Shown one piece after another: positions 20,487-63,110 of a stretch of 64,000 nucleotides of DNA (positions are counted from its first letter, which is position 1; each line of letters starts with the position of its first letter). Location: contig JACPTG010000004.1 of assembly GCA_016192905.1 (NCBI GenBank), forward strand, positions 173,734 to 237,733, written 5' to 3'. The translations under genes and the position numbers were made by a program. The notes beneath the pieces are model-generated. The model was not told the DNA's origin and did no database searches. It saw only the letters and a list, made by a program, of their open reading frames with translations. Source of the stretch: Candidatus Woesearchaeota archaeon. Its GTDB lineage: Archaea > Nanobdellota > Nanobdellia > Woesearchaeales > UBA10216.

Positions 20487-20573
20487 ACGGCAGTGGTCAA
20501 ACGGCATGACAGGAGCTTCCCAAGGCAATGCTGCAAAAAGCTTCTAGTCCGGGTTCAATTCCCGGCTGCCGTA
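20487..20573 (+). tRNA. tRNA-Gly(CCC) with 16-nt intron at canonical position 37/38
   Basis: Acceptor ACGGCAG/CTGCCGT with discriminator A. D-arm GTCA…TGAC. Anticodon stem GGAGC/GCTTC, loop TTCCCAA. T-arm CCGGG-TTCAATT-CCCGG. The intron is AGGCAATGCTGCAAAA. A TATA (tttataaatg) lies upstream. Confidence 0.7.
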
Positions 20574-20634
20574 TGAAACTTGTCCCTTCCCGGCCTTGGG
20601 TTACCTTTAAATCCTCCAAAAGATTACCTGCCTT

Positions 20635-20748
20635 ATGGAAACAGCGGTAGAGCCTGAAAACTGCCCTATATGCGGCAGGTTCATCTCCTATGCAAGGGGC
20701 GACCTCTGCTTTTGCACAAACTGCGGGTACCGGGATGACTGCTGCTAA
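20635..20748 (+). CDS. small Zn-ribbon protein (37 aa)
   Basis: METAVEPENCPICGRFISYARGDLCFCTNCGYRDDCC. Contains CPxCG…CxxC pairs. Below the ORF-track size cutoff. Confidence 0.3.
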   Translation: METAVEPENCPICGRFISYARGDLCFCTNCGYRDDCC

Positions 20749-20873
20749 AATGTCCCTGAAACTGAAAGAGTGGTAAAATGGCAAAGGCCACCTTAGATAA
20801 GCTGTCTGCACCACCAACAAAAAATCACAGTAAACTATATAAAAGAACCAGGGTTTCTTAACAATTGTTAAAA

Positions 20874-21233
20874 ATGATGCGGCTTCCACAGGAGATACAG
20901 GTATGGTATGTGCTGCCTGCATTAAGGAGGGAGCTTGCCATATTGCTGGCGCATTCCACGCCGAGGAAAGAAATAGCAAAAACACTCGGGGTATCAGAAG
21001 CGGCAGTATCCCAATACCTGAGCTCAAAAAGAGGCAACAATGTGGCATTTGACAGGCAGATAATGGGCCAGATAGCAGCCGCAGCCGCGCGGATAAGCAG
21101 AGACAGCAGCCAGGCAATGGCTGAGCTGATAAGGCTGTCAGAGCTGCCGGGCGTAATGCAGGCGATGTGCCGCCTGCATAAAGAACAGGAGCCTTCTGTG
21201 GAGAAGGGCTGCGACATCTGCTTCAGGAGATAA
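20874..21233 (+). CDS. HTH transcriptional regulator with C-terminal Cys cluster
   Basis: HTH segment RKEIAKTLGVSEAAVSQYL. C-terminus …CRLHKEQEPSVEKGCDIC. TATA (ctatataaaag) upstream. Immediately precedes sufB. Confidence 0.55.
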   Translation: MMRLPQEIQVWYVLPALRRELAILLAHSTPRKEIAKTLGVSEAAVSQYLSSKRGNNVAFDRQIMGQIAAAAARISRDSSQAMAELIRLSELPGVMQAMCRLHKEQEPSVEKGCDICFRR

Positions 21234-30786: not shown

Positions 30787-31410
30787 TTACGCATGCGCCC
30801 GCTTGATGTGCTTGAGCCTTGCGAAGTTCTCCCTCTCCATCTCCTCAAGCCTGAGCCTTACGTAGGAAGCTGATGCCTCAAGCCTTGGAATGGTGATTTT
30901 CTCAAGCGCATTAACCTTCCTCTTGGTCTTCTCAATCTCCTGCAGCAGCCTCCTCAATGCGGTTTCGTGCTCTGCCGCCTCCAGAACCTTCTCAACAAGC
31001 TTCTCGTAGGCAAGCGCTGCCTCGTCAATCTTAATAGAGCCGGAAAGGTAGCCAAAGCCCCTGGTGAAAATGCGCTTCTGCACAGCGCCCTTCTTTATGC
31101 TGGGCACCAGAACGCCCATCACGTTCTTGGCCTCAAGCTGGATAACCGGCTTGTCCTTAACAGCCAGCGCTACAGACTTAACAGCCAAATCAGAGTCAAG
31201 CGCCCTGGTGATATTCATCTTCCCAAGCGCATGCCTGTACTCCTCCACAAGCTCAGAGCGAACATTCCTGGCCTTTTCAAGTGCCTTGAAGAACTCAATA
31301 ATAAGGCCGTCACGCTTCTTCTTAAGCATGCTATGGCCAGACCTTGCCAGCTTAATCTTCTTCCTGAGAAGAAGCAGCTCGCTTCTATTTGGAGTTACGT
31401 TCTGGGACAT
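30787..31410 (-). CDS. atpD: A1AO (V-type) ATP synthase subunit D
   Basis: 207 aa. Coiled-coil subunit with the pattern typical of subunit D (…[25 protein letters not shown]…). Confidence 0.9.
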
Positions 31411-34357
31411 TCTTGTAGTACTTCTTCCTCAGCTCAGGGCTTATCCTGACAAGCTCAGCCTCAGGCAGGGCTCCCAAAAGAGCCCAAGCAACCCTAAGCG
31501 TATCCTCCTGGACAGACCTGTTCTCATTCCTGGCCTGCCTGACGAACACGTCCTCAAAGGAGGCTGCGAACTTCAAAAGGCGGCGGTCCCTCTCAGCAAG
31601 CGACTCCTCGCCGACAATAGCAGCCAGGCCCCTGAGGTCGCGGCCCTCAGCATAGGCTGCGTACAGCTGGTCTGAAACCTGCTTGTGGTCCTCCCTTGTC
31701 TTGCCCTGGCCGATGCCAAGGTTCATCAGCCTTGACAGGGATGGCAAAACATCAATCGGAGGGTAAATGTTCTTCCGGTGAAGCTCCCTGCTCAGGACAA
31801 TCTGGCCCTCGGTAATGTACCCTGTCAGGTCAGGAATCGGATGGGTGATGTCATCACCAATCATGGTCAAAATCGGAATCTGCGTAACAGAGCCCTTCTT
31901 TCCCTTGACAATCCCGGCCCGTTCATACAGCGAAGCGAGGTCAGTGTACATATAGCCGGGGTAGCCCCTCCTCCCGGGAATCTCCTCCCTGGCCGCGCCA
32001 ATCTCACGAAGTGATTCACAATTTGATATTATTAAGCCATTTCCAACCAAGAATTTTCCTGTTTCTGGAATGGTGACATCAAAAACAAACAAGTCTTTTG
32101 GTTCAGTTACTTTAATGTCTGTGATTTCGTCCAAAATGAATTCATCATTTGCATGTTTCTTTAACTCTTTCAGGATTTCATCATTTTCTGCAACGAGTTG
32201 AGAGAACTTTTCCATGCATTTTACAAGTTGCACTTTACTAATTCTCTTAAAGCCCCGTTCAACTTCAGACAACTGGCCGTTACTGGAAATTTGAGTTTGT
32301 TTTATTCCATATTTATGCCTCAATGCCCTTATTAATGTTCCGCAAACTCTCGGCGCATATTCAAATTCAGCGCTCTCTAAAGCATTATCCTTTACCTTCT
32401 CTAATTTATGTCTTTTATGCGGGTGTGATGCGCCAACTTTTTCAACAAACAAGTTAACATACCTTTTGCCTCTTATGATTATGTCAAACACATTACTCTC
32501 TCCATAAGTGCCTGTAGAGTGCCTATCAACAATGATAGAAGCTATTCCAAGTCTCCTTAAAAGCTGTTGGAGCCTTTTGATAACTTTTTCATTCACAGAA
32601 GTATATTGAATGACCCTTCTATTGACAATGCAGCTGCCATCGCCATCAAAGTAGCCTCTCAAAAATGCAGAAATCAAGTTTTCAGGCAATGAGAACAATT
32701 TCTTAAATTCCTTATCTTTCAAACCAAAGAAAGTTGCTATGTCGCAGTAAGCCTTATTATTAATTCTGCATATACTTACTCCATCTTGACTCTTGAAATC
32801 TGTAATCTGGATGTTGGGGAAAATTGTTGTAATCTTTTTCTTGTATATTTTTCTCAAATCAGAACTTGTATTTGAGAAATCCACGCGATAGATGTGGCTA
32901 TTCTCATTTCTTATCAATGAGCCATCAGAAGCAACTAGCCCTAGCAAGTAAAGTAAGTCGTCGTTTGCGTATGCCGTCGCTATTTTCAATCTATTGCCGC
33001 CAACATGCGATATGGCTGAAATTGCCTTCTCTATTGGCAACTCAGGACATATTTTAATCAATGCTCGAATCTCTTTAACATTCAAGAAACTTTCAGAATC
33101 TGTTAGCCTTGAATAATTAATGCCCGATTCTTTACATGCTTCCTTCAGTGAACCATACAGTTTTTTCAGTTTTTGTTTGCTGGTTTCCCTGACTAACTTA
33201 TCAAAGAAAACAATTGTGTTTTCATTTAATGCATCTATTATGGAAGGAATAGCCGTATTCACATTTATTTTTGATGTAATTGCGACTCTATCACCTTTCT
33301 TTAATTGGCCTGCAGGCGCCATTCTTAGTCCAAGAATCGTGTCTGTCAGTATCCTATGATTTGGCGTCAAGGTTAATTTGTTTCCTGAGCGAGTTGATAG
33401 TTCTATCATTTGCATTGAAGCTGGAAGCTTTTGAACTCGGGCAATCTGTTTAATGGCATCATTATTACCGTCCCATGTTAGCGCTTTTTCTTCCTTATCC
33501 CTAATATCAACATCAGAACCTCTTGTTTGACTTTCAACAAATTCTTTAATTGTTGTTATTCTTCCATCACCTAAAAACATCTCAGTTTCTCCAGCGACGC
33601 AGTAGTTCGTCATATCAGTCAATATTACCAGCACATGCATGTCCTTCTCATACGCAAAATACTCTGCTGCTGTAAGCGCCATTCTTGGAGTTATAAGCCT
33701 CTCCACAGCAGGGTCATCTGCCAGGTTGAGGAATACGAGAGACCTCTTAAGCGCGCCAGTGTTCTCGAAATCAGTAATAAAGCGCTGCGCTTCCTCATTG
33801 GTAATGCCCATTGCGGCAAAGATGACGACAAAGCCAGCCTCTTTGCCCAGAACCCTTGCCTGCCTTGCAATCTGAAGGGCAATGTCGTTGTGCGGCAGGC
33901 CAGAGCCTGAGAAAACAGGCAGCTTCTGCCCCCTGACAAGCGTATTCATCAGGTCAATGGTTGAAATACCTGTCTGGATGAAGTCCTCAGGGCCTGCCCT
34001 GGCCACCGGGTTAATGGCAGCCCCGGTAATGTCAAGCTTATCCTCAGGAATAATTTCAGGGCCGTTGTCAATGGGCTTTCCAGCGCCGCTAAGAATCCTT
34101 CCAAGCATGTCCGGGGAAACAGGCAGCCTGATGTTTTCGCCAAGGAACCTTACGCGGGCATCCCTGTCCAGGCCAGAAGTGCCCTCGAAAACCTGGACTA
34201 CGACTATATCATCACTTGTATCAAGAACCTGGCCTGTCTTTAATTCACCTGAAGGCGTGGCAATCCTTACCAGGTCATTATAGCCAACAGGGTCTGTCTT
34301 CCTTACAAAGACAAGCGGGCCTGCAATCCGTGAAACAGTCTTATACTCCTTTTCCAT
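31385..34357 (-). CDS. atpB: A1AO (V-type) ATP synthase subunit B, interrupted by an intein
   Basis: The N-extein ends …ILTDMTNY. The C-extein begins [36 protein letters not shown]. The exteins sum to ~464 aa. Start taken at MEKEYKTV. Confidence 0.9.
32021..33601 (-). mobile_element. intein in ATP synthase subunit B with LAGLIDADG endonuclease domain (527 aa)
   Basis: Starts [22 protein letters not shown] blocks [14 protein letters not shown] and [11 protein letters not shown]. Ends [11 protein letters not shown] with +1 Cys. In frame. Confidence 0.85.
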
Positions 34358-36074
34358 CCCTAAACTCCCTCTCCATGTCAGCCACAATCCCCTTGAGGAA
34401 TGGCTCGTAATCCTTCTCAAACTTCACATCGCCAATCCTGTCCTTTGCCTTAATCTCCAGAATCCTCTGCGCCTTCCCGCCTGATTCAAGGGCAGCGTAC
34501 GCAAGGTCAGCATACTTCAGGACAGTCTTCATTATGAGATAGGTTTTCTTAGGCTGCGAATACGTGTCAACAGGGTGGAATGCGTTCTGCTGCAGCAGGA
34601 ACTCACGGGCCATCCTCGCTATCCTCAGCGTAATCCGCTCACGCTCAGGCAGGGCATCAGAGCCAATAAGCTGGACAATCTCAAGCAGCCTGTCCTCCTC
34701 CTGAAGCACGGCCATAAGCCTGTCAACACAATTTCTCCAATCAGCAGCAACGTTCTTCGCAAACCAGGGCTCAAGGATGTCTGCGTACAGCGAGTAGGAA
34801 GTAAGCCAGTTTATTGAAGGGAAATGCCTGCGCTGGGAGAGCTTTGCATCCAAAGCCCAGAATACCTTAACAACCCTAAGGGTGCTTTGAGTTACAGGTT
34901 CTGAAAAATCCCCGCCTGGCGGCGAAACAGCGCCTATGACAGAAACAGAGCCTTCCTTTCCAGACAGCGCGACAACCCTGCCAGCCCTTTCGTAAAACTC
35001 CGCAAGCCTTGTTGAAAGGTATGAAGGGTAGCCCTCCTCACCAGGCATCTCCTGAAGCCTTGAAGAGATTTCCCTCATGGCCTCAGCCCACCTTGAAGTT
35101 GAGTCAGCCATAAGGGCAACGCTATAACCCATGTCCCTGTAATACTCAGCGATTGTAACTCCTGTGTAAATTGAAGCCTCCCTGGCGGCAACAGGCATGT
35201 TTGAAGTGTTCGCGATAAGCACAGTCCTGTTCATAAGCGGCTTATCAGTCCGCGGGTCAACCAGCTTAGGGAACTCCTCCAAGACCTCAGTCATCTCATT
35301 GCCCCGCTCGCCGCAGCCTACATAGACTACGACTTCTGCATCGGCCCACTTGGCCAAGGCCTGCTGAGTCACCGTTTTTCCCGACCCGAATGGCCCCGGG
35401 ATAGCAGCCACTCCTCCCTTGGAAAGCGGAAACAGCGCATCAAAAACCCTCTGGCCGGTAATCAGGGGAAGGTTGGGAATAAGCTTTTTAGAGGAAGGCC
35501 TGGGTCTCCTCACAGGCCACTGCTGCATAAGCGTAATTTTCGCGCCATTCTCCAAAGTGCAAACCTCGTCCTCAACGGTGAACGAGCCCTCTCTGATATC
35601 CTTCGCCTTTCCTGCGGAAATGTCTGCAGGGGCAGGGAACCTGTGTTCTGTGTTAAGCTCCTGGACAGTCCCGATAATCATTCCCGGAGAAACCAAATCG
35701 CCTTTTTTTACAGCAGGCTTAAACTCCCACTTCTTCCTGCGGTCCAAGCCAGGGGCAGTGATGCCGCGGGATATGAAATCTCCACGCTGCCTCCTAAGCT
35801 CTGCAAGCGGCCTCTGGATGCCATCATAAACAGAGTTAAGAAGCCCGGGGCCAAGCTCAACAGAAAGCGGAAGGCCTGTAGTCTCAACAACCTCGCCAGG
35901 CTTCAGGCCTGAAGTGTCCTCATAAACCTGGATTGTCGTGCGGTCATCATTAATCTGGATAACCTCACCCATAAGCTTCTCCCTGCCCACGCGAACAACG
36001 TCGTACATCCTGGCGCTGAGCCCCTTCGCAACGACCACAGGGCCTGAAATCTGGTAAAGCCTTGCCATTTTCAA
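34341..36074 (-). CDS. atpA: A1AO (V-type) ATP synthase catalytic subunit A (no intein)
   Basis: 577 aa. GPFGSGKT Walker A; …[22 protein letters not shown]…. Confidence 0.92.
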
Positions 36075-36349
36075 AGTTCTATGCCAATAGACCCCCTTAT
36101 CAGCCGGGCCATATCCTCCCTCCTGTCACTCGTTGACAGCATAACAAAAAGCGGGTTAATGGAATCTTCAAAAAATTTGCGGTCATCCTCCCCAAAAGCA
36201 GAAACAATGGACTCGTCAACAATGACAACCCCCACCTTCTCCTTTGGGATTGACCTAAGCTCGCCAGCCTTGGAGTAGTTAAATGTCTTCAGGCCAACCA
36301 ACTCAAACCCAAGCGTAAACTCAGGGCTACCAACAGCGACAAGATCCAT
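36071..36349 (-). CDS. atpF: A1AO ATP synthase subunit F
   Basis: Start at internal [20 protein letters not shown]. Length and position are typical of subunit F. Confidence 0.78.
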
Positions 36350-36350
36350 G

Positions 36351-37394
36351 CTAAACCACCAGCTGCTCCTCAATGAAACCCTCAGCCATCCCAAGCTGCC
36401 GGGCCTTCATAATGAGCCTCAGATTCCTGATTTCAATCTCCTTGGCAAACACATACCCGACAATCGAGTCTGCAAGCAGCGGCTTCCTCCTATGAAGCGA
36501 AAGCGCCTTCCTGAGAAGGTACTTGTAAAGGCCAGTCTCGACATAAATTAAAGTTTCCTTTTCCCTGAACTCCTTAACGCCCTGCCTGACATGCTCGCCA
36601 AACCTTGAATTCTCAAGCGCTGAAAGAATCTCCGCAAGCCCAAGCTCGGAAAGCCTCCTCACCATTGGCTCTGCATCAGCAACCGCCTTCTGCATATCGC
36701 GCTTATCCATACCCTCGCGCCTGTACCTAAGAACCTTAATCAGGGCAGCAATCAGCATCTCCTCAGCCAGGAACTCGCGGAAAAGGCTGCTGCCCATTCC
36801 CTGCATCCCAGCAACAATCGCCCTCCTGTACTCTGAATCAATCACGTTCTCAACCTCGGCAAGGCTGCCAGTCTCCCTAAACCTGTCAACAGCAACCTTA
36901 ACCTGGGCTGCAGGGAGGCCGGAATCGCGGAGAGCCTCCTCAACTGACTGCCTCCTGAAAACAGAGCGAAGCCTTTCAGCGCTTACAGAATAGGGAACGA
37001 GCACATTCATAACATCATCCTCTGACGAAGATGTATAAATGCCCCTAAGCACAGCCTTAAAATTATCCCTATCCCGCCTTTTCAGGTAAACATCCAGGAC
37101 ACGCTGAAGCGAAGGCCCTGAAAAGCGCCTGAGCTTCTGATAAGTGTTAGCCAGGTTAAGGTTAAGAGCCTGCTCCATAAGACTGACTCCTGAAAACCTT
37201 ACAGCAAGGGCATCAATCTCAGCCTTGTACTGGCTGGACTCAAGAAAGCCGATTACCTCAGAAAGGCCCATCCTAAGCAGCCTGTCATAATCCTGCCTGC
37301 CAAGAAGAGCTGCGCGCATCACGCATACACGGGCATAAGCGTAAGGGTAACGCCCGCCAGACTCAATTCCCGGTGAAGAGTATCTTTGCAACAT
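36351..37394 (-). CDS. atpC: A1AO ATP synthase subunit C (d-like)
   Basis: 347 aa, all-helical. Placement between E and F is as in archaeal operons. Confidence 0.82.
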   Translation of the reverse strand: MLQRYSSPGIESGGRYPYAYARVCVMRAALLGRQDYDRLLRMGLSEVIGFLESSQYKAEIDALAVRFSGVSLMEQALNLNLANTYQKLRRFSGPSLQRVLDVYLKRRDRDNFKAVLRGIYTSSSEDDVMNVLVPYSVSAERLRSVFRRQSVEEALRDSGLPAAQVKVAVDRFRETGSLAEVENVIDSEYRRAIVAGMQGMGSSLFREFLAEEMLIAALIKVLRYRREGMDKRDMQKAVADAEPMVRRLSELGLAEILSALENSRFGEHVRQGVKEFREKETLIYVETGLYKYLLRKALSLHRRKPLLADSIVGYVFAKEIEIRNLRLIMKARQLGMAEGFIEEQLVV

Positions 37395-37914
37395 CCTTCA
37401 ATGTCAACTCCCTGACTTTTTCAATCATCGCGCCGTAGCTCAGGTCAATCCTGACAGTTCCGTCACTGTTCTCAGCAATTATGCCGCCGGCAATCCCCGC
37501 AGGCTGGCATCTGACACCTGTAACTGACTTTACATCCCTTTCATTGCACATTACAAGCTGCACGTCCATCTGCTCCCTGGCCCTCCTAAGAAGGCTTTTC
37601 ACATGCTCAGACCTCCTGGCGGCCGGGGACTTGACAATGGCGGCTGCGGCTTCAAAATAGACCTCTTCAATCAGCCGCTTCCTCGCATCCAGCAAGGCCT
37701 TTGCCGCCTCAAGCTCTGCTGCAGCCAAATCCCTGGAGCGCTCCTCAGCAAGCCTTAGCTCAGCATCATCCAGCAAAGCCTTTGCAATCTCATCAGCTTT
37801 CTGAGTGGCAACAGCGATAACCTGCTCTTCCTCTTTCTTTGCCTCAGAAAGAATGCCCTGGGCTTCCTTCCTCGCCCTGGCAAGCACATCCTCCCTGACC
37901 TTCTCAAAGCCCAC
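37363..37914 (-). CDS. atpE: A1AO ATP synthase subunit E
   Basis: 183 aa with a charged coiled-coil N-terminus and a globular C-terminus. Confidence 0.82.
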   Translation of the reverse strand: MGFEKVREDVLARARKEAQGILSEAKKEEEQVIAVATQKADEIAKALLDDAELRLAEERSRDLAAAELEAAKALLDARKRLIEEVYFEAAAAIVKSPAARRSEHVKSLLRRAREQMDVQLVMCNERDVKSVTGVRCQPAGIAGGIIAENSDGTVRIDLSYGAMIEKVRELTLKDVAKILFTGN

Positions 37915-38142
37915 TCAACCACCCTGAGCAAGACCCAAGATCATAATGGCAACCACAAGACCGAATATGACAAGCGTCTCAGGAATGACAGTCATCAAAA
38001 GGCCCTTTCCAAAGAACTCGTCCTTCTCAGCCATGGCGCCAACAGCTGCAGCCCCAATCTCCTTCTCTGCGAGCGCAGCGCCAATGGCACTCAAGCCAAT
38101 GGCCAGCCCGGCACCAATGGCAACCAAACCAGTCTCAACCAT
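37915..38142 (-). CDS. atpK: A1AO ATP synthase proteolipid subunit K (c)
   Basis: 75 aa, Gly/Ala-rich two-helix hairpin, with the ion-binding Glu in helix 2 (VIPETLVIFGL). Confidence 0.85.
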   Translation of the reverse strand: MVETGLVAIGAGLAIGLSAIGAALAEKEIGAAAVGAMAEKDEFFGKGLLMTVIPETLVIFGLVVAIMILGLAQGG

Positions 38143-39985
38143 GCATCCTCACCTCGCGTTCACCGAATGGCCTGAAAGGCTCAGAGCCACCTTTATAAAA
38201 TTTTGTGAAAAACTCAACATACTCAAGCCTGAGCGAATGAAGAAAAGAGCCGAGAAGCCCAAGCAAAATATTAATCGTATGGCCCAATAAGAGCATAATT
38301 ACCCCGCCCACGACCGCAAAGCCCCCTGCGTGGAACATCTCGCCTGCAAACTCATTGACGATAAGCGCAAGCTGCACAGAAGCAAGGCCCACAGCCATAA
38401 GCCTGGCGTAAGAAAGGATATTGCTAAAAATGCCAATGGACTCAACAAGGGCCTTGACGCCTCCAATGGCGCCCATCCTCAGCTCAGCAAGCACCAGCAT
38501 GAAAACCCCTGCGGCCAACGAGCCTGCTGAGAGGACAACAAAAGGCTGCGGGACCTGAAAAATGCCAAGTGAGGAAAGGATAAAAGGCGCTCCAAGCTGG
38601 ATGAAAACCCAGCTGAACTTCTCCATAAACGCGGCAACAAACCCATGCCTCAGCTCATTCACAAAGCCAAGAGCCAATCCAAGGTTAACGTGCAAGACGC
38701 CAAAAGCAATCGCTGCCAAAAACAGAGCCTGCCTGCCCTCAGCATGCGCCCTACTCAGCAAATGCGGGATTGAAATCCCGAAAAACTGCTCCTCGCCAAA
38801 AAACTCGCCAAAGACAAACCCAAAAACAACTGAAGACAACGCACCGAGCAAAAGCACATCCAAAAGGGCAGCCCTGCCAAGCCTCATCCTCAGCAGGAGA
38901 ACCATGGCAAGGGTAACCAGGCCGTATCCAATGTCGCCAAGCATGAACCCAAAGAAAACAGGGAAAGTAAGAAACACAATCAACGTGGGGTCAATCTCGT
39001 CATAAAGGGGAAGCCCTCTCAAGCCAATCAGAAGCTCAAACGGGCTCGCAGCAGCTACATTATTCAACCGGACCGGGACCTTATCATGAGGGCCAACCTC
39101 CTCACAGGAAACAGAAACCCTGCCTTCGGAAACCCTCTCCAGCCGCTGCCTGACAGTGCCAAAGCCCTGCTCAGGCACAAAGCCAGTCACAACAAAAATG
39201 TTCCTGGACGTGCCAAACCTCAAGGGAGCCTCAGCCTTCTCAAGCTCGGCCGCGACCACCCACTCAGCAGACACGATAAAATCAGCCCACTTCTCCCTAA
39301 GCCTCGCAACGCCAGCAGCTATACCTGACTGCTCTGCCAAAAGCTTCTGCCTCTCAGCCGCAAACCTTTCAATGTGAACCGCAGCAGTGCCCTTCAAGCC
39401 CTCTGGAACAGGAATGTCAGCAAACCCTTCAGAAGCCAAGAACTCCTGGACCTCCCTGGCCTTTGCCGCCTCAACAAAAACAGCCAAAACGCCATCACCC
39501 CTGACAACGGCAACCCTGTCTGAAATACTTCCCAGGCGGGCATCAACAGACTTATCACCAAGCCTTCCAACAAAAACAGAAACAGACCTGCAGGACTTCA
39601 AGTCCTCCAGGCCAATGCCAAGCCCTGCCAGAGAAGACAGCTCTGACTCAAGCTGAGCCAAGGACTTCAACCTTTCTGACAAGGCCTTCTCCTGCCCAGC
39701 GAGCTCTCCAACAGACCTGCTGAGGACATCAAGCTTCTGCCCAGCCTCTGCAATGCCAATCCTCCTTGAAGGCTTCCCAAGCTTAATCCTGAGAAAAGCG
39801 GCAGCGGACCTTGCCGCAACCAAAAGCTCAGAAAGCCTCTCCGCAGACGCAAAGGGCTTCCCAAGCTCAAGCTCAGAAGCCTCGGATATGTGAACAGCCT
39901 TAAGAGCGTAAAGCTCGGCGACAACCTTTTCCATAACTGACTTGGAGCCAACTACCTGAACCTTGACCATCCTCTGAGGCATCAT
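38135..39985 (-). CDS. atpI: A1AO ATP synthase subunit I (a)
   Basis: 616 aa. A soluble N-terminal half plus a polytopic C-terminal half with conserved Arg in TM. Confidence 0.86.
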   Translation of the reverse strand: MMPQRMVKVQVVGSKSVMEKVVAELYALKAVHISEASELELGKPFASAERLSELLVAARSAAAFLRIKLGKPSRRIGIAEAGQKLDVLSRSVGELAGQEKALSERLKSLAQLESELSSLAGLGIGLEDLKSCRSVSVFVGRLGDKSVDARLGSISDRVAVVRGDGVLAVFVEAAKAREVQEFLASEGFADIPVPEGLKGTAAVHIERFAAERQKLLAEQSGIAAGVARLREKWADFIVSAEWVVAAELEKAEAPLRFGTSRNIFVVTGFVPEQGFGTVRQRLERVSEGRVSVSCEEVGPHDKVPVRLNNVAAASPFELLIGLRGLPLYDEIDPTLIVFLTFPVFFGFMLGDIGYGLVTLAMVLLLRMRLGRAALLDVLLLGALSSVVFGFVFGEFFGEEQFFGISIPHLLSRAHAEGRQALFLAAIAFGVLHVNLGLALGFVNELRHGFVAAFMEKFSWVFIQLGAPFILSSLGIFQVPQPFVVLSAGSLAAGVFMLVLAELRMGAIGGVKALVESIGIFSNILSYARLMAVGLASVQLALIVNEFAGEMFHAGGFAVVGGVIMLLLGHTINILLGLLGSFLHSLRLEYVEFFTKFYKGGSEPFRPFGEREVRMHG

Positions 39986-40296
39986 TTCACAAACTCCCCA
40001 AAAGACTCAAGAACGTGCGCAACAGCCTTTTCCTTCCTCCTCTGGCCTGCCTTAAACACCTCTGCGGCCCTGAGCCTTCCATCCTCAAGCAGCTTTTCCC
40101 TCAAAACAGATACCTTTTCACGGCCCTGGGCCAGAATTTTTTCCGCGGAAATGCGGGCTTCCTTTTCCCTGATTGAAATTATCCTCGCAGAATTAGACCT
40201 CGCAGAAGATACAACCTCCTGCGCCCTCTTCCTGGCAGACTCAACAATCTCATCCGCCTCACTCTCAGCCTTCCTTATCTCCTCAATAACCTTCAT
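39982..40296 (-). CDS. atpH: A1AO ATP synthase subunit H
   Basis: Start at internal MKVIEEIRKAESEADEIVESARKRAQE. The upstream ATG at 40326 would lie inside the RNase P RNA. Confidence 0.72.
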   Translation of the reverse strand: MKVIEEIRKAESEADEIVESARKRAQEVVSSARSNSARIISIREKEARISAEKILAQGREKVSVLREKLLEDGRLRAAEVFKAGQRRKEKAVAHVLESFGEFVK

Positions 40297-40299
40297 TTT

Positions 40300-40656
40300 A
40301 AAAGTGCGGGGGCAAGAATAAGCCACCTTCTGTCATGCCCGATGGCAGCACAGGCTGCCGATGGCACGCCTCAACATTCGACTAAGCGTCAAAGACTTGC
40401 ACCGGCCAGGACTCGCCGTTTCACCGTATCCCAGGGGAAATGTCTGCAGGTTAACTCTCCCATATCCTCGCGGAGGGATTCTCAGCATCATCCTAACCCA
40501 TGGGCCGTGCCGTTTCTGAGCGGTTGCCTTCCCTTTCAGGAACTCCCTGACAGGAGTGGCCATGTTTCAGCTCGCCTTTGCACAAGGCTCGCGTCGGTGG
40601 GTGGACTTTCCTCAGCGAAAAAACCGCCGGAGTCAAGCTCCTGCCCCGCACAACAC
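40300..40656 (-). ncRNA. rnpB: RNase P RNA (archaeal type A)
   Basis: On the minus strand: CR-I GAGGAAAGUCCACC. CR-V ACAGAAGGUGGCUUA, giving a P4 helix with a bulged U. GGUGAAACGGCG. P1 pairing GUGCGGGGCA/UGCCCCCGCAC. TATA (ttttaaat) about 27 nt upstream. No credible ORF. Confidence 0.7.
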
Positions 40657-40859
40657 CTGGACAAAAAGGAGATTTAAAAAGGTTTTGGCAGGCAAGTTAG
40701 CAGTCGGCGGTTGCATTCATGCTTAAAACTCAGCCGTATAAACCTTTATATACCGCGGCATTTCCCACAGTGCATTGCCTAGCCATTCACAATAATGGCG
40801 CTTGCAGTGGGCTATAAAACCTGCACATTGGCTTCTTGTCAGATGTGCTTAGATAAAAA

Positions 40860-41462
40860 ATGACTACAGCTGGAAATTTTTTGGTCCCCCAGGAGCAGTA
40901 CCTGAAGGCAGGAATCCACATAGGCACGAAATTCAGGACAAGGTACATGGAGCAGTTCATCTACAAGACAAGGCCTGACGGGCTCAGCGTGCTAAACCTC
41001 CAGAAAATTGACGAGAGGATAAGGCTGGCCATAGGCCTGCTTTCCGTTTACGCCCCTGAGGATATTCTTGTCGTCAGCAGGAGGGAGAATGGATGGAAGG
41101 CTGTGAAGATGCTGAACAGGGTTACAGGCATGCGCATAATCGCAGGCCGCTACCTTCCAGGCATCCTCACAAACCCAAAGCTTGAGAAGTACATGGAGGT
41201 CAAGGCTGTCCTGGTCACTGACGCCTGGCCTGACAGGAATGTCATTGGCGACGCTGTCAAGATAGGGATTCCGGTCATAGCCCTCTGCGACACCAACAAC
41301 CAGGCAAACAACATTGACCTGGTCGTGCCCTGCAACAACAAGGGAAAGAAGAGCCTCGGGCTCCTGTTCTGGATAATTGCGCTTGAGTACCTGAAGAAAA
41401 GGGGAACTATTCAGTCCGATTCTGAGTTTAAGGCGGTCATTGAGGACTTCACCGACGAATAA
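40860..41462 (+). CDS. rps2: 30S ribosomal protein S2
   Basis: 200 aa. …GIHIGTKFRTRYMEQFIY… is the archaeal S2 family pattern. Confidence 0.92.
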   Translation: MTTAGNFLVPQEQYLKAGIHIGTKFRTRYMEQFIYKTRPDGLSVLNLQKIDERIRLAIGLLSVYAPEDILVVSRRENGWKAVKMLNRVTGMRIIAGRYLPGILTNPKLEKYMEVKAVLVTDAWPDRNVIGDAVKIGIPVIALCDTNNQANNIDLVVPCNNKGKKSLGLLFWIIALEYLKKRGTIQSDSEFKAVIEDFTDE

Positions 41463-41655
41463 TCATCCCAGGTCTTCGTCATACCCTGCCATGAAAGCCT
41501 CTTCCTGCGGGCTGAGCTCATCATCCTCAAGCATCTGCTCTGCCCTGCCTGCCTCGTAAATGTCCTGCTCGGAGTCTTCCATTGCGCATCACCTGTCAAG
41601 GTGTACGCAAGCTTAATATATACTTAACCACTATAGAATATATGGCATATAAACT

Positions 41656-42594
41656 TTGGGGGTTATAATGGATGTAAGGAAAATCGTGAGCTTCGGCAAC
41701 TCGTCATTCGTAATTTCGCTACCAAAAAAGTGGGTTATAAGCCACGGGCTCAAGAAGGGCGACAGCGTCTATGTTGACGAGCGCAATTCCGAGCTGATCG
41801 TCTCAGGGGCTGAGAAGACCAAAAAGGCGCCAAGCCATGCCGTAATCAGCGCCGAGGGCAAGTCGCTTGCCGAGCTGAAGACAGAGATTTTTGCAGCTTA
41901 CGTCAACAATTACAGCATGGTTTCCATATCCGGCGGGAACGTAAAGGACATTTCGCCAGACATCAAGAGGATAATCCATGGCCTTGTCGGCATGGAGGTT
42001 GTCGAGGAGACGGCTTCAAGCATTGTCGTAAAGGACCTCATGGACCTGAGCGAGGTATCAATCGACAGCCTTGTGAGGAGGATGGACATCCTCCTGAAAT
42101 CAATGCTTGAGGACTCGGCCCAGCCTGACAGGAAGGAGAGCGTGAGCGAGCGGGACAAGGAAGTGAACCGCTTGGCACTCCTTTCAGCCAGGATTTTCAA
42201 GGCAGTGACCGAAAACCCCGGCCTGCTCAGGATTTTCGGCAACAGCTACTGGGACATGTACATCGCAAGGCAGGTCGCATTCCAGCTTGAGCATATAGGG
42301 GATAATGTCAAGAGGGCTTCAAGGCAGCTTGGCAGGAAGGGCAATGAAGACCTGAGGAGGATTTTCAGCCAGCTCAGGTCACGTTACCTGGAAGTGATGA
42401 AGGTTTACTATACAAAGGACAAGGAAGCCGCATATAGGCTTGAGTCTGACACGCGGAAGTTCCTCCACGCCTGCGACAAGCTGATTGAAAAAAACAGGGA
42501 TGTCACATCCACAAGGATTATCGACAACCTCAACGGAATGTCAAAGGCCATGATGTACATACTGAGGACGGTAATGGAAAGCGGGTCGGCGTAG
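41656..42594 (+). CDS. PhoU-domain protein with N-terminal AbrB/SpoVT swapped-hairpin domain
   Basis: 312 aa. VRKIVSFGNSSFVISLPKKWVISHGLKKGDSVYV is the AbrB-like part, followed by PhoU-like helical repeats. A paralog lies at 56927..57862. Confidence 0.72.
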   Translation: MGVIMDVRKIVSFGNSSFVISLPKKWVISHGLKKGDSVYVDERNSELIVSGAEKTKKAPSHAVISAEGKSLAELKTEIFAAYVNNYSMVSISGGNVKDISPDIKRIIHGLVGMEVVEETASSIVVKDLMDLSEVSIDSLVRRMDILLKSMLEDSAQPDRKESVSERDKEVNRLALLSARIFKAVTENPGLLRIFGNSYWDMYIARQVAFQLEHIGDNVKRASRQLGRKGNEDLRRIFSQLRSRYLEVMKVYYTKDKEAAYRLESDTRKFLHACDKLIEKNRDVTSTRIIDNLNGMSKAMMYILRTVMESGSA

Positions 42595-42636
42595 ATAAAG
42601 TCAGCATACCAGGCCTTTGTTTCAAATCAAAATTTT

Positions 42637-43323
42637 TCAGAATAGCCTGAAACCCTTCTCCTGCACTTCCTCAAATCCGGCGCCGGTGATTTCATACACC
42701 AGTTCCCTCTGCGGAATGTGCCTGTGCCTCTGAAGTATGGCCAGCCTCTTGCTTGAGTGAAGCTGCCTAAGCTCTATCAGGCACTTGCTGCTGTACGTTA
42801 TAATGTCCCCGCCAACCATCCTTATCCCTTTCTTGCCTTCAAAGTCAGAATAAACCTGATTTGTGACTATAACCGGTATTGCCTTTGTACGCGCAAGCCC
42901 GACCAAAGCCGCAACCTGCCTGCCCAGCTCCCTGTTAAGCTCAGAGTTATCCGAAGTCCTCTGCGCCCTGTACAGGGAGGTTATTGTATCAACCACCACG
43001 AGCCCAACCTTCTCAGTCGCCAGGCTACCCAGCTTCTCCAGGCATTTCTTCTGCTCATCGAAACTTGCAGGGCGGAGAAAGAGTATCCTTTCCATCACTG
43101 AATTGTCATTGCCTGCCAGCTGACGCAGCCTTGTCACCGAGAGCCCGCCTTCTGTGTCCACAAAAATAGCCTTCCTGCCCTGGCGCGCTGAATTGATGCA
43201 GGCAAGAAGGCAGGCAGTTGTCTTTCCAGTACCGGCCGGCCCATAGATTGTAGTGACAGCATCGCTTTCATACCCTCCCTCAAGCAGCCTGTCAAGAACA
43301 GCAGTGCCTGTCCCGAGCTTTTC
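42637..43323 (-). CDS. radB: DNA repair/recombination protein RadB
   Basis: Start at MEKLGTGTAVLDRLLEGG. Walker A is GPAGTGKT. About 230 aa, the size of RadB. Confidence 0.8.
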   Translation of the reverse strand, partial: EKLGTGTAVLDRLLEGGYESDAVTTIYGPAGTGKTTACLLACINSARQGRKAIFVDTEGGLSVTRLRQLAGNDNSVMERILFLRPASFDEQKKCLEKLGSLATEKVGLVVVDTITSLYRAQRTSDNSELNRELGRQVAALVGLARTKAIPVIVTNQVYSDFEGKKGIRMVGGDIITYSSKCLIELRQLHSSKRLAILQRHRHIPQRELVYEITGAGFEEVQEKGFRLF

Positions 43324-43405
43324 CATAGATTGCCGTGCTTTCACGGTGTTTTTAAAGTGTTTGCACAAGAATTTAGCAATAGCAGAACTCGCAGTTCCTT
43401 AACCG

Positions 43406-58443: not shown

Positions 58444-60007
58444 TGGAATCGCGGACCTCATAAAGCGGATCATCAGAATCCCCTACGGAAGGCGTGGGCG
58501 ATTGCGCAGGAGGGGAGCCTGGATTTTTCCTCAGCTTGGCGACAACAACGCCCAGCAGAACCACAAAAAGAATAACGCCTGCAAGCACAAAAAATATCCT
58601 GTTAGTACGCCTAACTCCTGCACTAAAATCCACCCTGACAGGCTCAGAAGGCCGAGATTCAACAGGAGCTGAGGAGTTAACGGAAACGTTCTGCTGGGCA
58701 ACAGCCGAAGCAACGCTCACAGGCTCAACAGAAGAGTAAGCGAAACTCTGGCCGAACAGGCTCTTATACCTCACAAGAGAGGTTAAATTATAGCTCCCAT
58801 CAGCGGTATCAACAACATAAGAAAACTCCTTATGCGACAAGCCCTCAATCCTAAGAACGCTCTCATTAGCCTCAACAAGACCATGAAGCTCAAGCCTGAG
58901 GTCAACAAGCGGCTTATTGGCAGGATTTATGACAAAAACAGAAAGACGGCTGCCTGCAGGCAGGCTCTGCCTTCCAACCCGCACATAAAGAGGCTTCAGG
59001 CTGCCATTGACAAAAACAGAGGACTCGGCCTTCTGCTGGACTCCATCAACCGAAAATTCAGCCCGGGACGAGACAGGGATAAGGCCTGCCTTTTCGACAG
59101 CAAACCTGTTCTGGAAGACCCTCACCTCATTTTCAAGCATCTTCCCGTTAAAGGAAAAAAACCTGCCGTCAGCGGACAGAGAATTGTCAGTCTTAACCGG
59201 GACAAGACCGCTGCCAACATCCACCCTGAAGGCAATGCTCAGATTTTTTGAGGATTTCAATGTGAAATTAACAGGCACCTCATCTCCAACCTCAGGGCTC
59301 AGGTTACTTACGGAAAAACCGGCCCTGACAGGATAATCCGGAACTATGACTGAAGCTGAAGACTCCTCCCTCGCAAAGCCAATCCCATTCATGTACTCAA
59401 CACGGGCAACAGAGCCAAAGGAAACATTGGACTTCGGCCTTAAGATATAGGAGCACTTCACCGCCTCGCCGGCAGCAAGCTCACCCCGCCATGAAACATT
59501 GTTGCCAGCAATCTGGCAGTCAGAAGCCAGCGAAACGTCAAACTCAGCAGGATAGGCGTCCTGGAAGAAAACAGAGCTGGCAGATGCCTCCCCAACATTC
59601 TGCATAATAGAGGTCACTGTAAACTGCCTGCCAAGAAGCAGCTCCGAAGGCATAACACGGGTCAGGTTTACCTTGGCAATATAGGCCTCAATAGCCAGCT
59701 TTGCCTTGTAAACCCTTGTGTTGGTAACATTCCGGTCCCAGTGGCTGAACGTGAAGTTGTCAAAGCACACATTATAGCCGGCCTGCTGCACGCAGTCACC
59801 GGCCGAGACAACAAAGCTGCCGCCAGCAAGGCTGACAACAACCTTGTTCTCGCCAGAGAAATCCACAGAGAAGGTCTGGTTGTTACTGGTAACGTACAGC
59901 TTGTCCTCGTAGGCGAAGGCGTCAAACACCTTTTCCTTGTAAAGCTCGGCAAAAACCTGCATAGAGATAAGAGAAAGCACAATCACCGACAAAATAAGCA
60001 GTCGCAT
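58436..60007 (-). CDS. surface-anchored (glyco)protein: signal peptide, multiple N-glycosylation sequons, C-terminal TM anchor
   Basis: Start at MRLLILSVIVLSLISMQVFA. C-terminus …RIFFVLAGVILFVVLLGVVVAKLRK plus a Pro/Ser tail. TATA (tttttatagg) upstream. Confidence 0.6.
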   Translation of the reverse strand: MRLLILSVIVLSLISMQVFAELYKEKVFDAFAYEDKLYVTSNNQTFSVDFSGENKVVVSLAGGSFVVSAGDCVQQAGYNVCFDNFTFSHWDRNVTNTRVYKAKLAIEAYIAKVNLTRVMPSELLLGRQFTVTSIMQNVGEASASSVFFQDAYPAEFDVSLASDCQIAGNNVSWRGELAAGEAVKCSYILRPKSNVSFGSVARVEYMNGIGFAREESSASVIVPDYPVRAGFSVSNLSPEVGDEVPVNFTLKSSKNLSIAFRVDVGSGLVPVKTDNSLSADGRFFSFNGKMLENEVRVFQNRFAVEKAGLIPVSSRAEFSVDGVQQKAESSVFVNGSLKPLYVRVGRQSLPAGSRLSVFVINPANKPLVDLRLELHGLVEANESVLRIEGLSHKEFSYVVDTADGSYNLTSLVRYKSLFGQSFAYSSVEPVSVASAVAQQNVSVNSSAPVESRPSEPVRVDFSAGVRRTNRIFFVLAGVILFVVLLGVVVAKLRKNPGSPPAQSPTPSVGDSDDPLYEVRDSIK

Positions 60008-60126
60008 GGGCTTAAAATACAAACACAAGCCTATAAAAATTTGCCGGAAAGGTGCTACAGTTTATTATCGTGAATGCTCGCAGTATATAATGGATTCTGC
60101 AAGGCTAATATATGCAATATGACAAC

Positions 60127-61140
60127 TCACTTAACCACATTAACCTGCTTCTTCCTGGCATAACCGCTGACATTCTCAACAGTGGTATCAAGAATCCTCA
60201 GCAAAGCCTCCCTGCTGTTGAAGGCATTGTGGGGAGTGATAATCACGTTGCCCATCCGCTGAAGCATGTGATTCTGAAGGACAGTCCGCAGGTCACAGGT
60301 CTGAGCAAAGCCTGCCGAAAGGAGCTGCTTCTCCTCCTTAATCTCGCACTCCTCCTCAAGAACATCAAGCCCTGCAGCAGCAAGCTGGCCTGAAGACAAA
60401 CCGCCAATGAGGGCCTCAGTCTCAACCAGGCCGCCCCTTGCAGTGTTAATAAGAATAGAACCCTTTTTCATTGAATTGATGTTAGACTTGTTGATTAAGT
60501 GGTGGGTGGCCTTGTTGTAGGGGCAGTGTAAAGTTACTAAATCGCTGTTCTTCAGCAGCTTTGCCATGTCTGCATACCTAAACCCGAGGTTTTTGGCCAG
60601 CCCGGAGTCCCGGTTAAGGTCAAAAGCCAGCACATCCATCTCAAAGCCGCGGGCCATCCTTGCGACATGCTGGCCAATGCTGCCCATGCCGACAATGCCT
60701 ATTGTTTTACCCTTAAGGTCAAAGCCCCTCAGCCCTTCCAGGCTAAAGTCGCCCTTCCTCGTGCGGTCAACGCTCTCCACAATCTTTCTTGAGAGGGCAA
60801 GTATAAGCGCGAAGGTGTGCTCGGCAACAGTATTCTCGCCATAATTTGGAACATTGCAAACAACAATTTTCCTCTTCCGGCATTCCTCCAGGTCAATATG
60901 GTCAAAGCCAGTGGACATGGTCGCGATGAGCTTAAGCTTAGGCAGGGAATCAAGAACTGACTTGTCAACCTTGGAGTAAATGAAAACCGCAAGAACCTCA
61001 GCATCCCTGACCTTCCTCAATGAAGCGCCATCAATCTTGCCGCTGAAAAAAACAGGCGAGAAGCCCTTCAGATTTTTGGATATGTGCTCGCGCTCCCAGT
61101 CCTCAACCTCAAAGAAGGCTGCCTTCCGCATAACCAGCAA
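60127..61140 (-). CDS. D-isomer-specific 2-hydroxyacid dehydrogenase (D-lactate dehydrogenase-like)
   Basis: 337 aa. GIVGMGSIGQHVARM (NAD-binding). The catalytic R/E/H triad context is present (…TARGGLV…, …ITPHNAF…). Confidence 0.88.
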   Translation of the reverse strand: MLVMRKAAFFEVEDWEREHISKNLKGFSPVFFSGKIDGASLRKVRDAEVLAVFIYSKVDKSVLDSLPKLKLIATMSTGFDHIDLEECRKRKIVVCNVPNYGENTVAEHTFALILALSRKIVESVDRTRKGDFSLEGLRGFDLKGKTIGIVGMGSIGQHVARMARGFEMDVLAFDLNRDSGLAKNLGFRYADMAKLLKNSDLVTLHCPYNKATHHLINKSNINSMKKGSILINTARGGLVETEALIGGLSSGQLAAAGLDVLEEECEIKEEKQLLSAGFAQTCDLRTVLQNHMLQRMGNVIITPHNAFNSREALLRILDTTVENVSGYARKKQVNVVK

Positions 61141-61257
61141 TCCCTGATGGAACTATAAAAAACTTTGCCTGCGGTAATGCGGACATGGCCAAATTCAGAA
61201 TCCGCCCGGGGCCACTTTTTCACAAACTTTATATACTTGTTATAACACGTAATTACT

Positions 61258-61455
61258 ATGGGGCTTATTTTGACCCTTCATGCGAAAGAGCAGATGGTCG
61301 AAAGGGGAGTAAGCAGGCAGCAGGTCATTGATACGATAAAGAAAGGGTCAAAAGTTGTTCAGACTGACGGGTTTTTAGCCTCTTATAGCTACATAAAGGT
61401 AGCATACAAGATGAGAGGTGATAAATTCATTGTAAAAACGGTGATGCTAAGATGA
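61258..61455 (+). CDS. DUF4258-family putative toxin
   Basis: 65 aa. LTLHAKEQMVERGVSRQQVIDTIKKG matches the DUF4258 consensus (HAxEQMxERGIS). Confidence 0.55.
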   Translation: MGLILTLHAKEQMVERGVSRQQVIDTIKKGSKVVQTDGFLASYSYIKVAYKMRGDKFIVKTVMLR

Positions 61456-61787
61456 GCGAAAAATGCTATATTTGTGAAAAAGGCGAACTTCTAAAGAAGA
61501 AAGTAGATGTCAAGCCTTATGGTGTTTCAATCGGAAAGTTTGATGCCCAAGTTTGCACTGAATGCAACGAAACGTTCTTTAGCGAGCAAACATCAGATAA
61601 GATAGATGAAGTTGCAAAAATCAAAGGGCTGTGGGGACTTGAAGCCCGAACCAAGATAGGCCAGGTCGGAAATTCGATTGATGTTAAGATAAGCAAGAAA
61701 ATTGCTGAATTTGCAGGCCTCAAGAAAGGAGGAGAAGTCAGAGTTTATCCCGAAGGGAAAAACAGGATAATAATTGAGTCTGCTTGA
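61452..61787 (+). CDS. putative antitoxin: N-terminal Zn ribbon (YgiT/MqsA-like) + C-terminal AbrB/SpoVT-like domain
   Basis: CYICEKG…CTECNE and VKISKKIAEFAGLKKGGEVRVYPEGKNRIIIE. Overlaps the upstream ORF by 4 nt. Confidence 0.55.
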   Translation: MSEKCYICEKGELLKKKVDVKPYGVSIGKFDAQVCTECNETFFSEQTSDKIDEVAKIKGLWGLEARTKIGQVGNSIDVKISKKIAEFAGLKKGGEVRVYPEGKNRIIIESA

Positions 61788-61805
61788 AAAAGAAATCGCC
61801 CCGAC

Positions 61806-61846
61806 TTTTAACAAAAACATCCATAGTCCGCCCAAGGCTACTTTTT
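61806..61846. repeat. 40-nt intergenic repeat, copy A (TTTTAACAAAAACATCCATAGTCCGCCCAAGGCTACTTTT)
   Basis: Identical 40/40 to 63111..63150 and about 31/40 to 63903..63945. Each copy begins 6-15 nt after a stop codon. Confidence 0.6.
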
Positions 61847-62212
61847 GCTTTTTTTCCCATCCTCAGCCCAATGAATCATGGGATGAAGCGCTCGCATCAG
61901 TTTCTTTCCATTTTTGGTTAAAGAATATTCAACTCTTGGCGGCATTTCATTAAATGAATGCCTTTGGACTATTCTCTCAGCTTCTAATTCCCGCAAGCGT
62001 TCTGTCAAAATCTTGGCTGTTGCTTTTTCAAGCCTGTCCTTAAGCTCGTTAAACCTTAGTATTCCAAAGTTTCCAATGGTAATTATAATTGATATAGACC
62101 ATTTTTTGCTTAGGAAATCAGAAGCCTCTTCAAGAGGCCTGGGACAGTAGCCCTTTAAAGACTTCATTTTACAACACTTAGTATCAATTTGGATAGTTTT
62201 GTTAGTTTCCAT
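61838..62212 (-). CDS. HxlR-type winged-helix transcriptional regulator
   Basis: 124 aa. CPRPLEEASDFLSKKWSISIIITIGNFGILRFNELKDRL…ILTERLRELEAERIV matches the HxlR family. Confidence 0.72.
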   Translation of the reverse strand: METNKTIQIDTKCCKMKSLKGYCPRPLEEASDFLSKKWSISIIITIGNFGILRFNELKDRLEKATAKILTERLRELEAERIVQRHSFNEMPPRVEYSLTKNGKKLMRALHPMIHWAEDGKKSKK

Positions 62213-62292
62213 TTTTAAACTCCTAAATTTAAATAGTAGCTTACTTTATTTGTTATACTAAGTAGATTATTTAAACTTTGTGAGGTGGAACG

Positions 62293-63093: not shown

Positions 63094-63110
63094 TTTTAGT
63101 TAGCCCTTAT

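Follow-up and report, generated by a model that had tools for sequence, protein, structure and literature searches.

Organisation of the locus

The stretch of DNA analysed here (the window) comprises 64,000 nucleotides (nt) of contig JACPTG010000004.1 of an uncultured DPANN archaeon, a Candidatus Woesearchaeota archaeon (NCBI GenBank assembly GCA_016192905.1, positions 173,734 to 237,733). It carries on its minus strand a gene for the RNA component of ribonuclease P (RNase P RNA, also referred to as the ribozyme), which is immediately followed by atpH, the first gene of an operon for an A-type ATP synthase. A first-pass annotation of this DNA had proposed that the atp operon is co-transcribed with, and processed from, an RNase P RNA precursor. 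The features at this junction are listed below, with coordinates counted from the first letter of the window.

40860..41462, plus strand: ribosomal protein S2 gene (Pfam Ribosomal_S2), the divergent upstream neighbour
40672..40685, minus strand: promoter AAACCTTTTTAAAT, consisting of a transcription factor B recognition element (BRE) and TATA box, 15.7 bits, with no other promoter-like site in the 520 nt ahead of atpH
40304..40651, minus strand: RNase P RNA gene, 348 nt, made up of the Rfam core (40309-40647) and an extension of helix P1
40651-40639 paired with 40316-40304, minus strand: helix P1, assigned by covariation
40383..40391, minus strand: minimal P15 hairpin GUC-UUU-GAC of 3 base pairs, standing in for L15/P16/P17 of the Rfam consensus
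40297..40303, minus strand: 7-nt spacer UUUUAAA, containing a weak T4 run but neither a Shine-Dalgarno sequence nor a TATA box
39982..40296, minus strand: atpH, subunit H of the A-type ATP synthase, 104 amino acids, first in the operon, with a weak Pfam V-ATPase_G_2 match over residues 2-97 and an N-terminus that aligns with homologues

Identity and structure of the RNase P RNA

A search with the Rfam covariance model RF00373 (RNaseP_arch) gave a match at 40647..40309 on the minus strand with a score of 120.2 bits (E-value 4.4e-33), exceeding the gathering threshold of 84 for archaeal RNase P RNA over the full model (positions 1-288 of 288, not truncated); the homologues score 97-149 bits. By eye, P1 is four pairs longer than the Rfam core, from G40651:C40304 to C40648:G40307. 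Folding of an alignment of eight homologous RNase P RNAs (alignment A1) with RNAalifold recovered P1, P2 and P3 with compensatory changes, as evidenced at the pairs 21:471 (UA in five and CG in three of the eight sequences), 17:475 (GC in 5/8, AU in 2/8 and GU in 1/8) and 14:480 (UA in three, AU in two). The RNase P motifs quoted in the first-pass annotation (GAGGAAAGUCCACC, GGUGAAACGG, ACAGAAGGUGGCUUA, CUUGCCCCCGCAC and UUUUAAAAUG) were all located on the minus strand, together with the P1 pairing and a P4 helix in which AAAGUCCACC pairs with GGUGGCUU and a U is bulged.

The same annotation had called the RNA type A, an assignment that was only partly borne out. The two hairpins that precede P10-12 in the Rfam model have counterparts in CUCCUGUCAGGGAG and UUCCUGAAAGGGAA, and P8 appears to be present in the window RNA, with P8/P9-like hairpins remaining; type M is reportedly also without P8. 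The element that marks type A, an L15 loop with P16, P17 and P6 distal to P15 that binds 3'-RCCA, was not found. Instead, the Rfam alignment shows a 3-nt loop in place of the 39 model positions distal to P15, and the GUC-UUU-GAC hairpin is kept in all eight homologues of A1. L15 is absent from M-type RNase P RNAs (PMC6565675). Compared with the archaeal RNase P RNA described by RF00373, the window RNA has the same conserved blocks GAGGAAAGUCC and ACAGAAGGNGGCUUA, the bulged-U P4, covarying P1-P3 and, in its specificity domain (S-domain), P8/P9-like hairpins and the GGUGAAACGG block, but it differs in having a closed P15 and in missing L15, P16, P17 and P6. The RNA belongs to the archaeal RNase P family but is not a canonical type A, because its P15 is a minimal hairpin without L15, P16 and P17. 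It fits neither textbook type cleanly and adds a variant of RNase P RNA in which a type-A-like S-domain is combined with a type-M-like minimal P15.

Lineage-specific insertions were observed in P3 (L010 and L017) and before P8 (60 nt in L009) in RNase P RNAs from other assemblies. The sole tRNA gene in the window (20487-20573, plus strand) is interrupted by a 19-nt intron in the region of the anticodon, its anticodon was not assigned by ARAGORN, and it encodes no 3' CCA, consistent with an RNase P without L15. A spurious open reading frame (ORF) on the opposite strand (20497-21048, minus strand) overlaps this tRNA gene.

The junction between the ribozyme and atpH

The Infernal/Rfam search, which the first-pass annotation had named as a check, did not place the RNase P 3' end well upstream. 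The ATG of atpH (40296-40294) lies 12 nt beyond the boundary of the model and 7 nt beyond the end of P1 as defined by covariation, in agreement with the gap of 4-8 nt that had been estimated. This codon is the sole ATG ahead of the conserved EEI(K/R)KAE(K/S)EAD motif, the N-termini of nine homologues align to it, and the sole longer in-frame start, GTG 40326, falls within the ribozyme. Three ORFs lie over the RNase P RNA: the GTG-extended atpH (39982..40326, minus strand), 40333..40563 (minus strand) and 40342..40677 (plus strand). We regard them as artefacts, as the first-pass annotation did, because alignment A1 shows 1-nt indels and covarying stems there. The finding is of practical use for annotation, as gene callers place false ORFs such as the latter two on the ribozyme and extend atpH into it both in the window and in L010.

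In folding analysis, the spacer and the start region of atpH were unstructured around the AUG, with z-scores of -0.2 to -2.9 and no common motif, and ARAGORN found no tRNA-like structure at the junction or in early atpH. Recognition of a tRNA mimic at the junction by an RNase P- or RNase Z-type activity, considered as a candidate, is unsupported given the absence of an ARAGORN match and of a common fold motif.

Conservation of the RNase P RNA–atpH linkage

A search with AtpH gave one relative, at 95% identity, the protein being too divergent for the word index, and AtpI was then used as query, with the contigs of AtpI homologues being scanned with Rfam. From the ribozyme side, metagenomes were scanned with the clade 3' motif ACAGAAGGNGGCTTATTCTT, giving 11 loci. 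An RNase P RNA followed on the same strand by atpH was found in seven other assemblies (L001, L007-L010, L016 and L017), with spacers of 7-23 nt; these and the window are the eight linked loci to which the counts below refer. Their junctions read as follows.

Window and L001: P1 end ...CCCCCGCAC, spacer TTTTAAA, ATG
L007: P1 end ...CCCCTGCT, spacer CCCACTCAC, ATG
L008: P1 end ...CCCTACGCA, spacer ATTTACGCATCACC, ATG
L009: P1 end ...CCCCTGCT, spacer TTTTTTATTACC, ATG
L010: P1 end ...CCCCCGCAC, spacer TTTTTGCTTAAA, ATG
L016 and L017: spacer of 22-23 nt without a T-run, ATG

The closest metagenome-assembled genome (MAG), GCA_964504135.1 (L001/L003), shares 98% nucleotide identity with the window, and the identity of AtpI among the linked loci L001 and L007-L010 ranges from 96% down to about 45%. 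The window AtpI is 100% identical to an NCBI protein named Candidatus Woesearchaeota archaeon, and its next 100 relatives belong to Woesearchaeota/DPANN. GCA_964504135.1 is titled 'uncultured Methanosarcinales archaeon', while its AtpI and the near relatives of this protein are named Woesearchaeota/DPANN; the Methanosarcinales label is probably a taxonomic misassignment.

Only two of the 11 loci found with ACAGAAGGNGGCTTATTCTT (L016 and L017) have atpH after P1, at 22-23 nt. In the remaining nine, the gene downstream is an unrelated one, 30-100 nt away, and the AT-rich spacer has TATA-like boxes of its own. No RNase P RNA was detected next to atpH by the Rfam scan in L011, L012, L013, L014 and three Methanomassiliicoccales-type loci. 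A scan of a genome collection with AtpI returned, apart from the sister MAG, just three Methanomassiliicoccales-like loci, none of them with an RNase P RNA close by, which is little informative on the breadth of the linkage.

The divergent upstream neighbour is radB in six of the linked loci (L007-L010, L016 and L017) and rpS2 in the window and L001, in which a block of rpS2, a MazE-domain protein gene and radB (window 40860-43326) is inverted relative to the other linked loci. The breakpoint of the inversion lies just upstream of the RNase P promoter and leaves the unit of promoter, ribozyme and atpH intact. It might be argued that the adjacency is incidental, reflecting an assembly chimera or neutral compaction without shared expression, given that DPANN genomes are compact and that a crude ORF call assigns 89% of the window to coding sequence. 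However, the junction is present in eight independent assemblies (NCBI MAGs, JGI, ENA and Logan) from three subclades and was kept through the flanking inversion; furthermore, atpH and atpI would still need a promoter, and none was found elsewhere. Conservation has largely refuted this explanation, which we consider very improbable.

In L001, an insertion of about 1,085 nt (L001 4527-5611, equivalent to window 40738-40688) is located directly upstream of the RNase P promoter. It contains a 323-amino-acid ORF without a Pfam or NCBIfam match and is not flanked by terminal inverted repeats.

Promoter prediction upstream of the ribozyme and of atpH

A 14-nt position weight matrix (PWM) for BRE/TATA elements was built from the operon-head genes of the window (24 sites, consensus AAAGCTTTATAAAG). 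The best match (about 9-18 bits) stops 20-24 nt short of the ATG in 14 of the head genes, which are therefore predicted to be leaderless; about ten further head genes have the motif 29-53 nt upstream together with a Shine-Dalgarno sequence. Judged from these distances, leaderless mRNAs would be the main mode in this genome.

The promoter AAACCTTTTTAAAT ends 20 nt before G40651, and an equivalent promoter of 12-17 bits precedes the RNase P 5' end in all eight linked loci at a distance of 19-22 nt, no other strong site being present within 520 nt of atpH. Because this promoter-to-P1 distance equals the promoter-to-ATG distance of the leaderless genes, the first nucleotide of the ribozyme is the predicted transcription start. 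By contrast, no BRE/TATA match of at least 6 bits was found within 80 nt upstream of atpH in any linked locus (0/8), and nothing like the BRE/TATA elements of this organism was detected between the two genes or in the last 80 nt of the ribozyme gene. The first-pass annotation had named a transcription start between the two genes as a refuting observation; this outcome, like that of the Rfam search, speaks against refutation. atpH has no Shine-Dalgarno sequence, but it also has no TATA box at 20-24 nt, and so does not resemble the gene of a leaderless primary mRNA. A scan of 39800-41400 for sigma-70 promoters and bacterial-type hairpin terminators, which is ill-suited to archaea, gave nothing relevant at the junction.

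The first-pass annotation had offered, as an alternative, a promoter inside the non-coding RNA (ncRNA). Here, the GGCTTATTCTT region, which belongs to the 3' part of the RNase P gene, would act as a weak TATA box for an independent leaderless atp mRNA, and the ribozyme transcript would end separately. Several observations are compatible with this arrangement: 19-33 nt separate the ATG from the T-rich CTTATTCTT upstream of it, GCTTATTC ends 23-26 nt short of the ATG in L008, L009 and L010, in or near the leaderless range, the lack of a Shine-Dalgarno sequence at atpH fits a leaderless primary transcript, and the T7 and T5 tracts of L009 and L010 should terminate ribozyme transcripts. However, PWM scores remain below 6 bits, and a TATA-only matrix, applied to positions that would allow a start at the ATG, gave -3.7 bits for atpH in the window and at most 2.1 bits in its relatives (-3.7 to +2.1 bits across 8/8 loci), which is the range of internal operon genes (median -1.4) and not that of the head genes (6.6-11.0 bits). 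An A-rich BRE is absent, and GCTTATTC is located anywhere from 19 to 33 nt before the ATG, too close to it in the window and L007 (19-20 nt). In addition, GGCTTATTCTT also occurs in the nine RNase P genes without atpH downstream, which have separate downstream TATA boxes, and is therefore ribozyme sequence (P4/P1) rather than an atp-specific signal. The low matrix scores, the variable distance and the occurrence of GGCTTATTCTT in unlinked genes thus disfavour the embedded promoter, which we consider unlikely.

Sister loci without the ribozyme

In L011 and L012, radB is divergent beside atpH and no ribozyme is found there, the intergenic regions being 150 and 94 nt, respectively. A promoter, AAACCGTTTTTTAA, is located 35 nt before atpH in L011 and another, GAAACGTTTTTAAAT, 29 nt before atpH in L012. 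Both are near-identical to GAAACCTTTTTAAAY, which precedes the ribozyme in L007, L009 and L010, and they occupy the same position relative to radB as GAAACCTTTTTAAAY does. At about 7-13 nt, the short leaders that these promoters imply for L011 and L012 are comparable to what follows P1 in the linked clade, namely spacers of 7-23 nt. This comparison is suggestive of a ribozyme gene that sits between the atp promoter and atpH, having come there by insertion at about +1 or having been lost in the sister lineages.

Proposed co-transcription and processing

As expected for a co-transcription unit, the ribozyme and atpH are on the same strand with no promoter between them. Together with the adjacency in seven other assemblies, a sole promoter upstream of the ribozyme and a matching atpH promoter in the ribozyme-less sisters, this lends computational support to the first-pass proposal of co-transcription and processing, which remains an inference. 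We consider it rather probable that the ribozyme gene lies between the atp promoter and atpH, and that one precursor is cut after P1 to give a near-leaderless atp mRNA.

Under this model, transcription would start about 21 nt downstream of the BRE/TATA element at 40685-40672, at or next to G40651, the 5' end of P1. RNA polymerase would make the 348-nt ribozyme and mostly pass the weak T4 run into atpH, atpI and beyond. The stable ribozyme would then be freed by endonucleolytic cleavage immediately 3' of P1, and the remaining atp mRNA, with a leader of at most 7 nt, would be translated like the organism's many predicted leaderless mRNAs. The longer T-runs of L009 (T7) and L010 (T5) would cause partial termination and so set the ratio of ribozyme to mRNA. 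A ribosome on the atpH AUG would overlap the 3' strand of P1, and translation would be expected to favour the cut RNA because P1 is only 7 nt from the AUG.

The T-runs after P1 range from 0 to 7 in length among the linked loci, with T4 in the window and L001, T5 in L010, T7 in L009 and at most T3 in L007, L008, L016 and L017, so that 4/8 loci are without a T-run of at least four. These tracts may tune the ribozyme-to-mRNA ratio, or they may argue for another start site. The length of the T-run was also tried as a discriminator, but it gave no clean separation of linked from unlinked RNase P genes.

Several points weigh against the proposed co-transcription and cleavage. A large share of transcripts could end at the T4 (window), T5 (L010) and T7 (L009) tracts. 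The homologous spacers are not conserved and could not be aligned, and no conserved cleavage signal was found in those of the linked loci. With 7-23 nt before the start codon and no Shine-Dalgarno sequence, the mRNAs would not be leaderless in the strict sense. As the PWM recognises canonical BRE/TATA elements only, a weak atypical initiator would escape it. The similarity of the L011 and L012 promoters to GAAACCTTTTTAAAY may be mere shared consensus. The anatomy of the locus, its conservation and the promoter positions are documented here, whereas read-through, cleavage by a nuclease and the mode of translation are inferred.

The starts of Logan contigs offer no further help in this regard. 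All Logan contigs with atpH (L002 and L026-L029) begin 106-107 nt before the ATG, inside the ribozyme core GGTGCAAGTCTTTGACGCTTAGTCGAATGTT. A reading of these starts as transcript ends was rejected, the site being a 31-nt invariant ribozyme core; they are best explained as a de Bruijn branch point common to co-occurring strains, and not as a biological end of an RNA.

The same evidence for co-transcription would also be accommodated by a transcript that is not cut, in which the ribozyme serves as a structured 5' untranslated region (5' UTR) and atpH is translated by internal initiation, or in which P1 and assembly of the ribonucleoprotein (RNP) repress its translation. Spacers that lack a conserved cleavage signal and a P1 that ends so close to the AUG are in line with this possibility. 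On the other hand, there is no Shine-Dalgarno sequence before atpH for internal ribosome recruitment, although internal genes of this genome, such as atpK, have one; an essential and stable ribozyme carried on an mRNA of 8-10 kb would share the decay of that mRNA; and the threefold variation in spacer length speaks against a precise steric switch. We therefore judge the uncut transcript to be improbable, less so than incidental adjacency but more so than an embedded promoter.

Returning to the cleaved precursor, a more far-reaching form of this proposal holds that, in a Woesearchaeota-like clade, the ribozyme was inserted exactly at +1 of the atp transcript, that the essential tRNA-processing ribozyme and the only ATP synthase are obligatorily expressed from one promoter, and that 3' maturation of the ribozyme creates the near-leaderless atp mRNA; we consider this form about as likely as not. 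In a bolder version still, atpH translation would be gated by P1 as it folds and by the RNP as it assembles, 7 nt from the AUG, which would couple RNA-processing capacity to energy metabolism.

Comparison with known systems

Stable ncRNAs in mRNA leaders are known from Thermococcus kodakarensis, where tRNA-Lys is located in the 5' UTR of TK0306 and small nucleolar RNAs (snoRNAs) are found in 5' UTRs (PMC4247193). As in that organism, a stable ncRNA lies between promoter and coding region in the window and its release would need processing. Here, however, the ncRNA is the RNase P ribozyme, it begins exactly at the predicted transcription start and it would be followed by a nine-gene ATP synthase operon. 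In Nanoarchaeum equitans, also a DPANN archaeon, tRNA-sRNA (small RNA) dicistrons have been described in which 3' processing of the first RNA makes the 5' end of the second (PMC3491384), with box A TTTAAA preceding the start site by about 26 nt and stretches of T acting as terminators (PMC3491384). The two cases share a compact DPANN genome and a downstream RNA that has no promoter of its own and whose 5' end would come from 3' processing of the upstream RNA; they differ in that RNase Z, a tRNA substrate and a small-RNA product are involved in N. equitans, whereas the downstream product in the window would be an mRNA. Leaderless mRNAs are known from archaea such as Haloferax volcanii, where they account for 72% (PMC4983044). 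Like these, atpH has no Shine-Dalgarno sequence, and the TATA motif of head genes in the window ends 20-24 nt before the ATG, but atpH itself lacks a TATA box at that position and its near-leaderless 5' end would need cleavage instead of initiation. In the literature consulted, the coverage of which was incomplete, we found no archaeon, Woesearchaeota/DPANN included, for which joint transcription of an RNase P RNA and an mRNA has been reported, an absence of evidence only.

The linkage is real and is conserved across the eight assemblies, and the pair of RNase P ribozyme and atp operon would add to the known ncRNA-mRNA co-transcription in compact archaeal genomes. If the proposal is true, a core bioenergetic operon has a catalytic housekeeping RNA as its 5' leader and a leaderless-type mRNA arises by cleavage, not by initiation, which would show the extent to which transcription units have been merged in reduced DPANN genomes. 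The locus, being conserved, also offers a concrete case in which to test how the 3' end of archaeal RNase P RNA is formed and how processed leaderless mRNAs are translated. We rate the significance as moderate, given that co-transcription of ncRNA and mRNA in archaea is already known and that the mechanism at the RNase P-atp locus is a proposal.

The ATP synthase operon and further features of the window

The remaining genes of the operon follow atpH on the minus strand.

38135..39985, minus strand: atpI, 616 amino acids (Pfam V_ATPase_I)
38191..38204, minus strand: promoter-like BRE/TATA AAAATTTTATAAAG, 17.0 bits, located within the 3' end of atpI and 48 nt upstream of the ATG of atpK
37915-38142, minus strand: atpK (Pfam ATP-synt_C)
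37363-37914, minus strand: atpE (Pfam vATP-synt_E)
36351-37394, minus strand: atpC (Pfam vATP-synt_AC39)
36071-36394, minus strand: atpF (Pfam ATP-synt_F)
34341-36074, minus strand: atpA (Pfam ATP-synt_ab with Xtn)
31385-34357, minus strand: atpB with an intein (Pfam ATP-synt_ab)
30787-31410, minus strand: atpD (Pfam ATP-synt_D)

Nine co-directional genes in the order H-I-K-E-C-F-A-B-D identify an A-type (A1Ao) operon, and the Pfam domains, with a weak match for H, agree with the order that the first-pass annotation had given. The site AAAATTTTATAAAG may act as an internal promoter that boosts the c subunit encoded by atpK, a gene that has the Shine-Dalgarno sequence GAGGTGA. Equivalent sites upstream of atpK score 16.7-17 bits in L001 and L007-L010 and are weaker in L011 and L012. 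The site overlaps the codons of the conserved peptide EFFTKFYKGG, and L013, in which this peptide is encoded by other codons, has no site of the AAAATTTTATAAAG type.

AtpB of the window, about 990 amino acids long, harbours an intein with a LAGLIDADG domain; the window AtpA (577 amino acids) has no intein. In the 98%-identical relative (L001 10229-12315, plus strand), AtpA is 1081 amino acids long, with an intein and a LAGLIDADG domain. The intein occupancy of the two catalytic ATP synthase subunits thus differs between near-identical genomes.

The GC content of the window is about 50%, with the exception of its last part (60001-64000), where a GC fraction of 0.41, compared to about 0.50 elsewhere, is accompanied by AT-rich intergenic stretches and small ORFs.

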